Shown here: piece after piece, positions 3,001 to 9,000 of the stretch | Layout of the letters: each line of letters begins with the position of its first letter | How positions within the stretch are numbered: position 1 is the stretch's first letter | From: a virus | Lineage: Duplodnaviria; Heunggongvirae; Uroviricota; Caudoviricetes | Virus record (IMG/VR): IMGVR_UViG_2695420487_000017 | Direction: 5' to 3' (one strand) | DNA: 12,931 nt | Made by a program: the position numbers

Positions 3001-6000
3001 GCGGCGGTCAGGTCTTCTGCTGTTCCCCACTTGCTGCCGCTCTGAATTGCAGCATCCGGTTTAACCACAGAAAGATCGTTTTCTGGCTGGTCAGAGGATT
3101 CGCCAGAATTCTCGGACGAATAATCTTTTCTTTTTTCTTTTGTAATAGTGTCTTTTGTGTCCCCCTGTTTTGAGGGATAGCAATCCCCTAATTTGAGGGA
3201 TGTTTTATCCCTCGTTTTAGGGGATTTTCCCTCGTTTTGAGGGATGTCCCTCATTTTAGGGGAACTTCCCTCGTTTTGAGGGATGCACCATTCTGAGATG
3301 TTTTTATTTGGTCCAAACATGCCGCCTTGCTGCTTGATAATATTCATTCTGACGAGTTCTAACTTGGCTTCATTGCACCGTTTGACAGGTAACTTTGTAA
3401 TCTCGCTAAGTTGAGAATCGGTGATTCTGTCCATTGGTTTATTCCACCCATAGGTTTTACGCAGAATGGCAAGCAGCACTTTAAACTGTCGCTTGGTCAG
3501 ATCTGCGCCTGAATAAGCCTCAATCAGCATATTTGATAGTCTGGCGTAACCATCATCGAGATCTGCCACATTACGCTCCTGTTCGGCAAAGTTACCTCTG
3601 CCGAAGTTGAGTATTTTTGCTGTATTTGTCATAATGACTCCTGTAGATTGATCCAGTAATTCCCTCAGAATTGCATATCAATTTGCTTAGAGTCCCCGGC
3701 GGCCACCGGGGATTTTTTCTTTGTGATTTCATCAAGCGCATACTTAAAAGCCCTGCTAATCGGACTGATGTCTGATGCCATTCCGAAAGCACACAAGACC
3801 GAAGCAATAAATCTCCAGTCCGTTCTGCTTATCTTCGATTCATGACAGCCAATCATCTTTGCCAGACCGCGCTGGGTAAGCGTTGACAGGTTGATGAGTA
3901 AATCAGTTTCAGCGCGATCAATTTCTCGCTGTGATAGTTTGCTGTAACTTGTTTGTTCCATTTCTTAAGATTTCCAATAGTGAATAGCTAGTTGAAAGGT
4001 ATGCGTGGAAACGCATATGGCCTTAGTTGGTCAGATATATTGGGACTCGCTTTGTCAGCGACGTAGGACGAATGTCCATTGTGAAAAGAGCGGTGTTACT
4101 TATGCAGCCAGAAGGTTCTTTTTGCTTATTTCAAGCATTTCGCTTGCTTGATATTTGCCACCAGAAATCTCTTCGATTTTTGATGCGTATTTAGTTTTCC
4201 CAAAAAACTCAGTCTTAGGGAGGAAGCCGTTTTTGAGCCACTTATAGACAGCCCTTTCGCTAACTCCACAAGCCTTCGCAACTTCAGGGATGCCGACACC
4301 TTTAATCGGCTCATCAAGATTTTGCATAGGAATATCCTTTTTCGTACTTTCAGTACGTATTATGGTTGAACTGAAAGTTTTTGCAAGTGCTTTAGTATCG
4401 TACTCATGGTTCAGAATGAAAAAGTGCGCAAAGAATTCGCCCAGCGGCTAGCGCAAGCCTGTAAAGAAGCTGGTCTTGATGAACATGGTAGGGGAATGGC
4501 TATAGCCCGTGCCCTTTCTCTTTCGTCCAAAGGCGTTAGCAAATGGTTTAATGCTGAGTCTTTACCGCGTCAGGAAAAAATGAATGCGCTTGCGAAATTT
4601 CTAAACGTTGATGTTGTTTGGCTTCAGCACGGCACTTCGTTAAATGGAGCGAATGATGAAGATACTCTTTCATTTGTTGGCAAATTAAAAAAAGGGTTAG
4701 TGCGCGTGGTTGGTGAGGCAATTCTTGGTGTTGATGGTGCCATCGAGATGACCGAAGAGCGCGATGGGTGGCTCAAAATTTATAGCGATGATCCAGATGC
4801 CTTTGGTCTTCGTGTGAAAGGAGACAGCATGTGGCCCAGAATAAAATCAGGAGAATATGTACTCATTGAGCCTAACACCAAAGTATTCCCGGGTGATGAG
4901 GTGTTTGTCAGAACCGTTGAAGGACACAACATGATTAAGGTTCTTGGCTATGACAGAGATGGAGAATACCAATTTACAAGCATTAACCAGGATCACAGGC
5001 CTATAACGTTGCCTTATCATCAAGTAGCAAAGGTGGAGTATGTAGCTGGTATTCTGAAGCAATCTCGCCATCTGGATGACATCGAGGCAAGGGAGTGGCT
5101 GAAAAGTTCGTGACTTCATCGTCACATAGCTGGTAACCAGTGGCCTGAAGAGACGTTTGGGTGATGAATGGCTAAATGTCTCCTAATAAAAACAGCAATC
5201 ATTTGAAATTATTAATAATTATAGAGGCTTAGTCTTGGAAATCAGCACGGCGGTTATTCATTCCGAAGAAGATGCTTTGCGTTTTGTTGAGATGTACATC
5301 GCTGGGCAAGATCTTCCTGATGGAATATCATTTGAAGGGTGGCCTAACTTAACCTTCCGTCTTACTGGTGACAAATTTCATGGCAGTTTGACTCCTTCTG
5401 TCATGAAGGGTTTTGTTGAAATGCAGGCCCAAATAAACCGAGCTTATGCATTGTTAAAGTACGGAGTTCCTGACCCAAGAAAGCTTTCAAAAGAAGAGAA
5501 GGAAGCTATCGAAATTCAGGTGAATGTTGAGAATGGCTCGTCCTTGATAGAAGTTAATATGGATGGGTTCATGGGTGAGGTTATACAAACTGCGGTGAGT
5601 AAAGTGGGCCCTCAAGAGATCGTTATTACAGTTTTAGGGGTCGCTCTTATATGGGGCGGCGTCGTCCTATTCAAAAAATATCTAGAAGACCGCAAAGAGA
5701 TTCGCATGGCAGAAGTAAAAAGCGAGTCTGAGCGTGAACACCTTGCGACCATGCGCTTCATGTCTGAGCAGGAAACAAAACGAAGTGAATTATTGACTCA
5801 GATTATTAGCGAAAAACCCAAGCTAGACAACATGGAAAGACTTGCTCATGACGCAAAAACCGACATAGTTAAATCATTTGTCAAGGCTGATACAGCTCAG
5901 ATTGATGGCGTTGTATTGGATGCAGATCTATCCAAAACCCTCACTACAAATGCAAGGCGGAAATCAATGGAGATCCGCCTTGATGGAAATTATCGCATTG

Positions 6001-9000
6001 AAAAGGTTGACTCCACTGATCCAGAGAGCTTCAAAGTGCAAGTGAGAAATGTTGACTCCGATCTAAGAATATCGTGCATAGTACAAGATGTTTTTCTCGA
6101 CGCATCCGAGCATAAAAAAGCTCTTCAGCAAGCTGAGTGGGATAGAAAACCAGTTCATTTGTCAATCAACGCAAAAGAACTAGATGGTGAAATAAAGTCC
6201 GCGATAATACTTTATGTCAAAGAGATAACATAATCCTCATCCCGGCCTCAGCGCCGGGTTTTCTTTGCCTCACGATCCCCACATCTAAAAACACATAACC
6301 AATTGTATTTGTTGATGTAACTCGCTAAACCATGCAGTTATGATCCCTGCCGCATAACCTTCATCAGCCACATTTTCAAAAATAAATTTCCTTATATATC
6401 AGAATCATACTTCGTAGAGTTAATAAATCACCAAAATTCGTACCAATAGTTCTTGATAATGTCGAACTATTGGTTCATTATTATCGTCATCAGCAGGACG
6501 CATTACTCACCAGGGCGGTGAATATACAACGATTCGAATATGAATCTACGGCGCTGACAAAGCGCAATAACCAAAGTGAACTTTGGGGTGTGGTGAAGGG
6601 TTCATGGACGGGAATATGTCGCACGTAAAGCGGCGAGGCCTGCGGGACTATTGCCGAATTGAAGTAGGCCGAAACAGGTCGAAATGGGTCTCCCACCTAC
6701 CACACCACCAAAGTTCATCAGGAGGTCTATATGACACGCAGAACTCAGTTCAAAGGCAATTCACGTTCTCGTCGTCGTGAGCGTTTAAAGGCAAAGGCAT
6801 TAGCTAACGGCGTGCTGGCCCGCGAAGAAGCAATAAGTTCAGAAGTATTACACCGCCCTACTCTAAGCAGAGCGCAGATTCAGGCTAAAGGTACTCACGA
6901 AACGCCTGAGCGCATAGAAGACGCTAAGCCAATTAAGTTCATGGCACAGGACGTGATCTGGCAACAGAAAGAATACAGACGCAATCTGGAGCGAGCGGCC
7001 ATTGTGTACGCGAATGAGTTTGGACATAAGCAACCAGAAACTGGTGTATGTCTTCCAAACGTAGCCATTTACGCGGCAGGCTACCGGAAATCCAAACAAC
7101 TGACGGCGAGGTGACTTGTGTTGGTCGCCAGAAAATGAAATTAGGCAGCAAACCACTTATTTGAGGTGAGATATGACAAAATCATGGAGCGTACCTTTTC
7201 CTGAATCAGAAACTGAACATGATGGAATGCCTGTTTTCTGGAGATTCCAGGCGACAGTTGAAGAAGATGGGATAAAAATATTCGCACTTCAATATATAGC
7301 TTTTCATCAGACAGAGCATTATGCATGGTTGGTTCCTGCGCATTGGATTGTTAATTTTAAACCAGCACCAAATCAGTGGTTACAGGAATGGAAACAAAGG
7401 AGAAATAGATATGCAATTAAGAAAGTAGCAAAAAATGCAGAAAGATCTTTTGCATTCCCAACGAAGAAACTTGCCATTGAGAGTTTATTGCACCGGAAGA
7501 AATACCATTTAATGAGAATCAAACAAGATTTGGCTGTTGTATCAACTCTTGTTGATGGGATGAAGAATATTGATACATCAATACCAGATATTGAATATAA
7601 CTTTGGACACAACCAAGAAACAGAAAACTGGGTGTTTTATTAGTACGAATAAGCACTGTGTATTCATTCCAACGAGTGAATACACGGAGCAATGTCGCTC
7701 GTAACCAAACAGGAGCCGACTTGTTCTGATTATTGGAAATCTTCTTTGCCCTCCAATGTGAGGGCTTTTTTATATGCATACCAATAACGCTTCACTAGAG
7801 GCGTTTTCGTTATGTGTAAATAAATAAGGAGCACACCATGCAATATGCCATTGCAGGGTGGCCTGTTGCTGGCTGCCCTTCCGAATCTTTACTTGAACGA
7901 ATCACCCGTAAATTACGTAACGGATGGAAACGCCTTATCGACATACTTAATCAGCCAGGAGTTCCCAAAAATGGATAAAACACTTATGGCTATCCAGACT
8001 AAATTCACTATCGCCACTTTTATTGGTGATGAAAAGATGTTTCGTGAAGCCGTCGACGCTTATAAAAAATGGATATTAATACTGAAACTGAGATCAAGCA
8101 AAAGCATTCACTAACCCCTTTCCTGTTTTCCTAATCAGCCCGGCATTTCGCGGGCGATATTTTCACAGCTATTTCAGGAGTTCAGCCATGAACGCTTATT
8201 ACATTCAGGATCGTCTTGAGGCTCAGAGCTGGGCGCGTCACTACCAGCAGATCGCCCGTGAAGAGAAAGAGGCAGAACTGGCAGACGACATGGAAAAAGG
8301 CCTGCCCCAGCACCTGTTTGAATCGCTATGCATCGATCATTTGCAACGCCACGGGGCCAGCAAAAAAGCCATTATCCGTGCGTTTGATGACGATGTTGAG
8401 TTTCAGGAGCGCATGGCAGAACACATCCGGTACATGGTTGAAACCATTGCTCACCATCAGGTTGATATTGATTCAGAGGTATAAAACGGATGAGTACAGC
8501 ACTCGCAACGCTGGCAGGGAAGCTGGCTGAACGTGTCGGCATGGATTCTGTCGACCCACAGGAACTGATCACCACTCTTCGCCAGACGGCATTTAAAGGC
8601 GATGCCAGCGATGCGCAGTTCATCGCATTGTTGATCGTCGCCAACCAGTACGGCCTTAATCCGTGGACGAAAGAAATTTACGCCTTCCCTGATAAGCAGA
8701 ACGGCATCGTTCCGGTGGTGGGCGTTGATGGCTGGTCCCGCATCATCAATGAAAACCAGCATTTTGATGGCATGGACTTTGAGCAGGACAATGAATCCTG
8801 TACATGCCGGATTTACCGCAAGGACCGTAATCATCCGATCTGCGTTACCGAATGGATGGATGAATGCCGCCGCGAACCATTCAAAACCCGCGAAGGCAGA
8901 GAAATCACGGGGCCGTGGCAGTCGCATCCTAAACGGATGTTACGGCATAAAGCTATGATTCAGTGTGCCCGTCTGGCCTTCGGATTTGCTGGTATCTATG

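Follow-up and report, generated by a model that had tools for sequence, protein, structure and literature searches.

What occupies, in a lambdoid prophage, the slot that lambda gives to rexA and rexB, and what might it do for the lysogen? Rex, the first abortive-infection system, came from the cI-to-N slot of lambdoid phages, and how it works is still a matter of debate. The question is raised by a stretch of 12,931 nucleotides from a Caudoviricetes virus, IMG/VR record IMGVR_UViG_2695420487_000017 (in its whole length, "the window"), in which one gene, encoding a protein of 332 amino acids (aa), follows a cI-type repressor gene. This gene is a self-contained cargo cassette, or moron, of a lambdoid prophage, and its product belongs to a family undescribed in the libraries and literature examined. 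The chances are close to even, if slightly below, that it encodes a lysogen-expressed, membrane-anchored anti-phage defence determinant of some type.

The cassette between cI and N

The genes of the window are those of the early region in a lambdoid prophage, and run in the opposite direction to the lambda map. The plus strand carries, in this order, cI, the open reading frame (ORF) of 332 aa, N (6731-7114; PF25694), orf156, kil, gam, bet and exo; cro, cII, O, P and ren lie on the minus strand. The succession of cI, the ORF, a terminator, a candidate OL/pL and N (coordinates in Table 1) agrees with the rexAB position proposed in the initial annotation, and the gene is alone in the slot, as stated there.

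The ORF begins with a TTG codon, the earliest possible start past an in-frame TAA (5187-5189), and ends with TAA. A Shine-Dalgarno motif, AGAGG, is found at 5223-5227, spaced by 7 nt from the start. The protein is identical to RefSeq WP_000406300.1, for which the same start is annotated, and its homologues align from residue 1; start, ribosome binding site and length therefore stand as initially read.

The limits of the cassette were established by comparison with H-19B-type prophages. The blastn match to phage H-19B (AF034975) runs through the 3' half of cI to position 5166, breaks, and restarts at 6234, so that the exact cassette spans 5167-6233. The 332-aa allele is present in 9 of 5426 complete E. 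coli genomes, the 53-nt left junction in 398. In the same slot, H-19B (4135-5477 of its record) encodes a HigB toxin (PF09907, E-value 4e-30), a 139-aa helix-turn-helix (HTH) antitoxin and a 93-aa ORF; the deposited record leaves this 1.9-kb cI-N interval without annotation. In further E. coli prophages that share the left junction, the cargo is either HicA/HicB together with a hypothetical gene, or HigB/HTH. The slot of E. coli CFSAN018748 (locus L032, 3591-4897) contains a 185-aa protein and a DUF1828 protein, weakly matching the PADLOC candidates PDC-M24A/B (E-values 5e-4 and 4e-10). The finding of HigBA, HicAB or a PADLOC candidate pair between these junctions in sister prophages shows that the slot is a hotspot for cargo, as the initial annotation had supposed; toxin-antitoxin modules, PADLOC candidates and the 332-aa gene are seen to be swapped there, with exact junctions.

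The identical protein is found 3' of two different E. coli repressors, WP_000250473 and WP_001274760. In the latter case the cassette begins directly past the stop codon of the repressor gene, and positions 5134-5164 of the window are homologous to the last 31 nt (TGA included) of that gene, as found in CM129861. This segment is what is left of such a gene, and indicates the recombination junction where every cassette of the slot starts.

At the other end, a hairpin (CCCGGC-CTCAGC-GCCGGG, 6241-6258) is followed by TTTTCTTT, with a predicted energy of -12.1 kcal/mol and a z-score of -2.25. Positions 6234-6315 are 96% identical to H-19B, whose cargo at this place differs. Because the homology resumes at 6234, the first base past the stop codon, the terminator is a shared backbone feature and not a part of the 332-aa gene; the initial annotation had located it correctly, and had wrongly described it as the gene's own. 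A similar correction concerns base composition. The gene is AT-rich when compared to the window (42.0% versus 47.1% GC), but this does not distinguish it from its surroundings: similar or lower values are found for cI (45.2%), cro (42.1%) and orf156 (36.1%), and AT-richness is therefore a property of the whole immunity region.

Promoter and terminator scans and folding (z = 0.11) revealed no convincing promoter, terminator or stable structure in the leader (5167-5234), nor was a terminator or stable structure seen in the rest of the interval between cI and the gene; read-through from cI is therefore likely.

Family and predicted architecture

The protein matches over its full length the profile hidden Markov model of phrog_6191, a group annotated as of unknown function (E-value 1.1e-137; residues 4-331 on positions 6-334 of 338). 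No match was found in Pfam, NCBIfam, PADLOC-DB 2.0 or PDB sequences. The only Pfam hit, to aRib, scored 17.9 bits, below its cut-off of 27, and was rejected as noise; searches of PDB sequences, both with the protein and with the family profile, returned only noise at E-values of about 1. The initial annotation could not place the protein in a family, and the profile and PADLOC searches lead to the same result: phrog_6191 is the only group to which it is assigned, and no characterised family is matched.

Relatives are numerous. A word-indexed search returned 122 clusters at 90% identity, which come from Enterobacterales and, beyond these, from Pseudomonas, Pasteurellaceae, Oceanospirillaceae and Caballeronia. 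When 1.84 billion representatives at 50% identity were searched with a profile, 1556 matched at E<=1e-3, 601 of them at E<=1e-30. Both results argue that the gene is under selection. Among the 150 matches listed, most are 320-360 aa long and align end to end; no fused annotated domain was found among the members listed, the longer ones having been checked. Residues Q64, L84, G101-S102-S103, L150, R153, R241, Y253, W302 and R304 are invariant or nearly so. This is a large family of constant architecture, lacking described relatives. It includes more than 1500 clusters, and is covered by no Pfam, NCBIfam or PADLOC model and by no literature.

Every source labels the members as hypothetical, including those of the only two deposited phage genomes with phrog_6191 homologues, Moraxella phage Mcat17 and Pasteurella phage Pmp14. 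About 1.7% of complete E. coli genomes carry the family gene, which also occurs in Salmonella and Klebsiella prophages. Two proteins checked as possible relatives, HepS (PMC13043305) and Tab (PMC10884400), turned out to be unrelated.

The protein contains a single hydrophobic segment (residues 128-146), where the mean Kyte-Doolittle value over 19 residues reaches 2.33, the next best being 0.74. The simple Hessa-scale sum for its core 18-mer is about -2.2 kcal/mol, and the segment is kept at about position 129 in 253 relatives. It is preceded by about 127 aa and followed by 186 aa, in keeping with the two-domain layout initially described.

The protein was modelled by AlphaFold2, using an alignment of 50 sequences; the mean predicted local distance difference test (pLDDT) is 86.6 and the predicted template modelling score 0.69. 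In the model an alpha/beta N-terminal domain (residues 1-121) is followed by a long helix (residues 126-160) broken at residue 142 (W-G-G), by three further helices spanning residues 164-217, and by a beta-barrel (residues 245-330). The latter is a closed barrel of five strands with a helix between strands 3 and 4, and the C-terminal domain, to which the initial annotation had given no fold, is predicted on this ground to be an OB-fold. Within the predicted transmembrane helix G135, W140 and the GG kink are conserved, and a conserved face, formed by L150, R153, R157 and E160, follows immediately.

A search for full-length structural analogues found none in the PDB. Foldseek against BFVD returned three weak, uncharacterised ones, including proteins from Leptospira phage LE1 and a DUF6575 protein, at uninformative TM-scores of 0.26-0.33. 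A distant homologue of 203 aa, from a Treponema metagenome-assembled genome (MAG) (locus L026, 5884-6495), aligns with 36% identity over residues 39-176 and consists of the N-terminal domain and transmembrane region only; between it and an S24/HTH repressor gene lies a single ORF of 204 aa. The N-terminal domain and its anchor may work without the OB-fold.

Table 1. Features of the immunity region and of the cassette, in window coordinates.
Feature	Position	Strand	Basis or remarks
cI-type repressor, HTH and Peptidase_S24; upstream gene of the presumed pRM operon	4406..5113	+	Pfam PF00717 (E-value 4e-16), PF01381
Conserved left junction of the cargo slot	5114..5166	+	common to about 400 E. coli genomes and 122 phage records with other cargo
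Cassette leader, with AGAGG Shine-Dalgarno (5223-5227)	5167..5234	+	fold z = 0.11
Coding sequence of the 332-aa protein	5235..6233	+	phrog_6191 member; identical to WP_000406300.1
N-terminal alpha/beta domain, no known fold (residues 1-125)	5235..5609	+	conserved motifs GWP, TPSVMKGF..Q64, V98-x-x-G101-S-S
Single predicted transmembrane helix (residues 128-146), EIVITVLGVALIWGGVVLF	5616..5672	+	AlphaFold2 helix 126-160, break at 142
Charged helical stalk, four helices (residues 147-217)	5673..5885	+	AlphaFold2 secondary structure
Predicted C-terminal OB-fold beta-barrel (residues 245-330)	5967..6224	+	conserved basic/aromatic R241, R242, R248, Y253, W302, R304, K314
Intrinsic terminator of the immunity operon	6241..6266	+	6-bp GC stem, 6-nt loop, TTTTCTTT
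Candidate OL/pL: TTGATA-17-CATTAT, with operator-like GTACCAATAGTTC and GAACTATTGGTTC flanking and overlapping	6440..6481	+	promoter scan and reading of the sequence; tentative

Genomic contexts and possible functions

About 25 independent contexts of homologues were examined; a profile scan of genome contigs, with a narrower alignment, provided 7 loci. The family gene is always single, and no partner gene recurs from one context to another. A position after the repressor, in the same orientation, is observed in E. coli (two immunity types), Morganella and Moraxella phage Mcat17. In a Pasteurellaceae prophage the gene is located 3' of cI and of a gene for a KilA-N protein matching PDC-S22 (E-value 2e-124); this protein is 283 aa long (locus L018, 4090-4941), and two cargo genes are thus stacked in the rex slot. 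A Syntrophotalea phage-like plasmid shows a repressor and, further on, the family gene and an integrase; the truncated Treponema homologue also follows a repressor. Outside E. coli, the repressors in these contexts are of the S24 or HTH type.

A second location is between the antiterminator gene Q and the holin gene, antisense to both, in Salmonella, Enterobacter, Pectobacterium, Serratia, Rahnella, Entomohabitans and an Enterobacteriaceae MAG; this allele is found in 86 of 5426 E. coli genomes. In one such context (locus L013, 4764-4785, minus strand) a strong terminator on the late-gene strand lies just 5' of the holin gene. This suggests that pR'/tR' is located between the family gene and the holin gene, and that the former was inserted between Q and pR', convergent with Q. 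Both main prophage slots could allow expression in the lysogen independently of the lytic programme.

The remaining contexts are varied. Mu-like transposable phages carry the gene; it follows umuDC-like genes in a Providencia prophage and a Fic protein gene in Vreelandella, and adjoins an IS1595 transposase in one context. It lies beside a Type ISP/IIG restriction enzyme, GmrSD and an AHH nuclease in Oceanospirillaceae, and beside Type I HsdS/HsdM in Psychrobacter. In the Oceanospirillaceae island, a 331-aa upstream neighbour, considered as a paralogue or partner, proved to be unrelated. One copy is on a Vibrio megaplasmid, and the Caballeronia copy is chromosomal and solitary, among metabolic genes.

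The anti-phage reading is favoured because the gene is exchangeable cargo, occupies lysogeny-linked slots in unrelated phages, takes the same slot as toxin-antitoxin modules and defence candidates, occasionally neighbours restriction systems, and is patchily distributed. The more precise assignment of the initial annotation, superinfection exclusion or abortive infection, would amount to guilt by association.

Among the 253 relatives, the 15 residues flanking the predicted transmembrane helix contain on average 4.0 K/R on the C-terminal side and 1.9 on the N-terminal side, the C-terminal flank being the more positive in 82% of them; neither the query nor the relatives have a signal peptide or a hydrophobic N-terminal segment. 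On account of the positive-inside rule, the K/R-rich C-terminal flank and the conserved L150/R153/R157/E160 face, a cytoplasmic location of stalk and OB-fold is probable, with somewhat better than even confidence.

A possible mechanism can be outlined. The gene would be co-transcribed with cI from pRM/pRE, the transcript ending at 6241-6266, and the protein would be anchored in the inner membrane via helix 128-146, whose conserved small-residue/WGG face may drive oligomerisation. The K/R-rich juxtamembrane stalk and the OB-fold would be cytoplasmic, following the positive-inside rule; the conserved Arg/Tyr/Trp surface of the OB-fold might bind a ligand made by the phage, be it single-stranded nucleic acid or protein. 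Binding would rearrange the helix bundle and breach the membrane potential, so that the infection is aborted. The protein would be a functional analogue, in one polypeptide, of RexA (sensor) and RexB (channel), and not a relative of either. Abortive infection through this specific combination of an OB-fold sensor and a depolarising helix is doubtful as it stands. The broader proposal is more doubtful still: a widespread single-polypeptide defence family, a "one-chain Rex", in which a cytoplasmic OB-fold sensor, a stalk, an oligomerising helix collapsing the membrane potential and a new N-terminal fold would be combined from Enterobacterales to Desulfuromonadales.

Several points weigh against a defence role, or against the mechanism outlined. 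Restriction systems adjoin the gene in only 2 of the approximately 25 contexts, and the remaining ones can be described as prophage cargo, which fits non-defence conversion genes equally well. No PADLOC-DB 2.0 family was matched at E<=1, systems described after 2023 and DefenseFinder models being outside the scope of this search, and literature searches by accession, PHROG number and architecture found no paper on the family. As for promoters, scans of the sequence 5' of the gene, both in the window and in the Q-holin contexts, gave results no better than chance. As to topology, a cytoplasmic C-terminus needs the export of a folded N-terminal domain of 127 aa without a signal peptide, which is unusual, and the OB-fold has its closest matches among proteins that are secreted or periplasmic (AB5 toxin B subunits, SilF/CusF), which would fit the opposite orientation. 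Finally, with one helix per chain, a pore is formed only by an oligomer.

The opposite orientation is the basis of another reading, exclusion at the envelope. With the N-terminus in the cytoplasm and the C-terminus outside, the stalk would project the OB-fold into the periplasm, where it would bind ejection or tape-measure proteins of the incoming phage, or a host inner-membrane entry factor, and block genome entry without killing, in the manner of P22 SieA, HK97 gp15 and T4 Imm. The positive-inside rule opposes this orientation, 4-5 K/R being present in the 15 residues past the helix and the bias being shared by 82% of the relatives, and so does the conserved R153/R157 face at the C-terminal boundary of the membrane. 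Moreover, known exclusion proteins of this kind are far smaller and unrelated (no PADLOC or Pfam match), and the conserved cytoplasmic domain of 127 aa would be left without an obvious role. This reading is judged unlikely.

A role in lysogenic conversion without defence is given a similarly low probability. The protein would be an envelope or stress-fitness factor, for example binding metals or glycans through the OB-fold, or altering membrane physiology. Moron slots hold non-defence cargo too, Bor, Lom and Stx being examples, and the predicted OB-fold resembles both the metal chaperones SilF/CusF and glycan-binding toxin B subunits. The solitary Caballeronia copy and that on the large Vibrio plasmid point in the same direction. 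On the other hand, it is restriction systems, toxin-antitoxin modules and PADLOC candidates that lie next to the family gene, and not genes for envelope or metal functions; a host-virulence role is unlikely because the members are not confined to pathogens and occur also in free-living marine, soil and anaerobic bacteria.

Participation in the phage life cycle, by tethering prophage or replicating DNA to the membrane via the OB-fold, by controlling induction or by timing lysis, is less probable again. The gene often adjoins regulatory switches (repressor, Q) and lysis cassettes, in Mu-like phages it is co-oriented with genes leading into the late region, and binding of single-stranded DNA is common among OB-folds. 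Against this, the gene is dispensable and patchy (9 plus 86 of 5426 E. coli genomes); sister phages of the same backbone have toxin-antitoxin modules in its place; in the Q-holin slot it is antisense to lytic transcripts; and it occurs also outside prophages, beside restriction systems. That the ORF is spurious, or the remnant of a pseudogene decaying in a spacer between genes, might be suggested by the non-ATG start and by the empty annotation of the H-19B cI-N interval, but this is effectively excluded by the more than 1500 clusters conserved over the full length, with identities as low as about 30%, by the invariant residues, by the confident model and by the correct Shine-Dalgarno spacing.

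If the anti-phage reading holds, the combination of a novel domain, a transmembrane helix and an OB-fold would be a new architecture for bacterial immunity, and would provide a simple single-gene model for the coupling of a membrane effector to a sensor. The presence of the family in prophages of E. coli, Salmonella and Klebsiella may affect host range in phage therapy.

Surrounding features and comparison with known systems

Other features of the immunity region were noted. The C-terminal (S24/dimerisation) half of cI, 4686-5113, is 98% identical to H-19B cI, while its N-terminal DNA-binding half is unrelated; the H-19B blastn match around cI covers only 4686-5166. The repressor is a chimera, which suggests that domain swapping gave rise to a new immunity specificity. 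The candidate OL/pL would leave the 332-aa gene outside the pL transcript. An operator-like sequence, CGTACTTTCAGTACG, in the cro-cI spacer (4343-4357) is a candidate OR; read by eye, it has GTAC/GAAC half-sites in common with the candidate OL (GTACCAATAGTTC and GAACTATTGGTTC), and a k-mer operator search found no 11-mers common to OR and OL. The most AT-rich gene of the window, orf156 (7173-7643), is located between N and cIII/kil, which corresponds to the ral/sieB region of lambda. It belongs to phrog_1636, of unknown function, has no match in Pfam, PADLOC or NCBIfam, and is another candidate for a moron. Rfam recognises the lambda cIII thermoregulator RNA at 7825-7883 (RF01804, 88.5 bits); the cIII ORF, shorter than 50 aa, is absent from the ORF list, and an overlapping 89-aa ORF (7845-8114) has a Kil domain at residues 44-74.

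Among known proteins, those with OB-folds (AB5 toxin B subunits, CusF/SilF, SSB/PriB/RecO) show a sequence identity of 6-18%. A signal peptide is present in the toxins and CusF but not in the 332-aa protein. In the latter the predicted barrel forms one chain with a putative membrane anchor and a novel N-terminal domain; it lies C-terminal to the anchor instead of being free in the periplasm or medium.

P22 SieA, HK97 gp15 and T4 Imm are small-genome cargo, inner-membrane proteins acting in the lysogen. The 332-aa protein is not linked to them by PADLOC, Pfam or PHROG, is much larger, and has two conserved soluble domains.

With the BstA/KilA-N proteins (Salmonella BTP1; PDC-S22) the gene shares the condition of single-gene prophage cargo located just 3' of a repressor, and in the Pasteurellaceae prophage the PDC-S22 KilA-N protein and a family member are side by side after cI. 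The 332-aa protein differs in having a predicted transmembrane helix and no sequence match to them; no KilA-N domain was detected in it by Pfam at E<=1. BstA is reported to be soluble and DNA-associated (PMC8585504).

The closest parallel in position is lambda RexA/RexB. The slot is the same, directly 3' of cI and 5' of the immunity terminator, OL/pL and N, the terminator at 6241 being analogous to that after rexB; presumed expression in the lysogen, a predicted membrane component and the status of dispensable cargo are further likenesses. No homology to RexA or RexB was detected by hhalign (probabilities of 0.08% and 0.16%, respectively) or by PADLOC. Whereas lambda has two genes, for a cytoplasmic sensor and a polytopic channel with four transmembrane helices in RexB, here a single gene with no conserved partner encodes a protein with one such segment and a predicted OB-fold, which is absent from Rex. 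The kind of element, single-gene exclusion cargo of a prophage in the rex slot, is familiar; the family, its N-terminal domain and the association of predicted transmembrane helix and OB-fold are what this locus adds to it.

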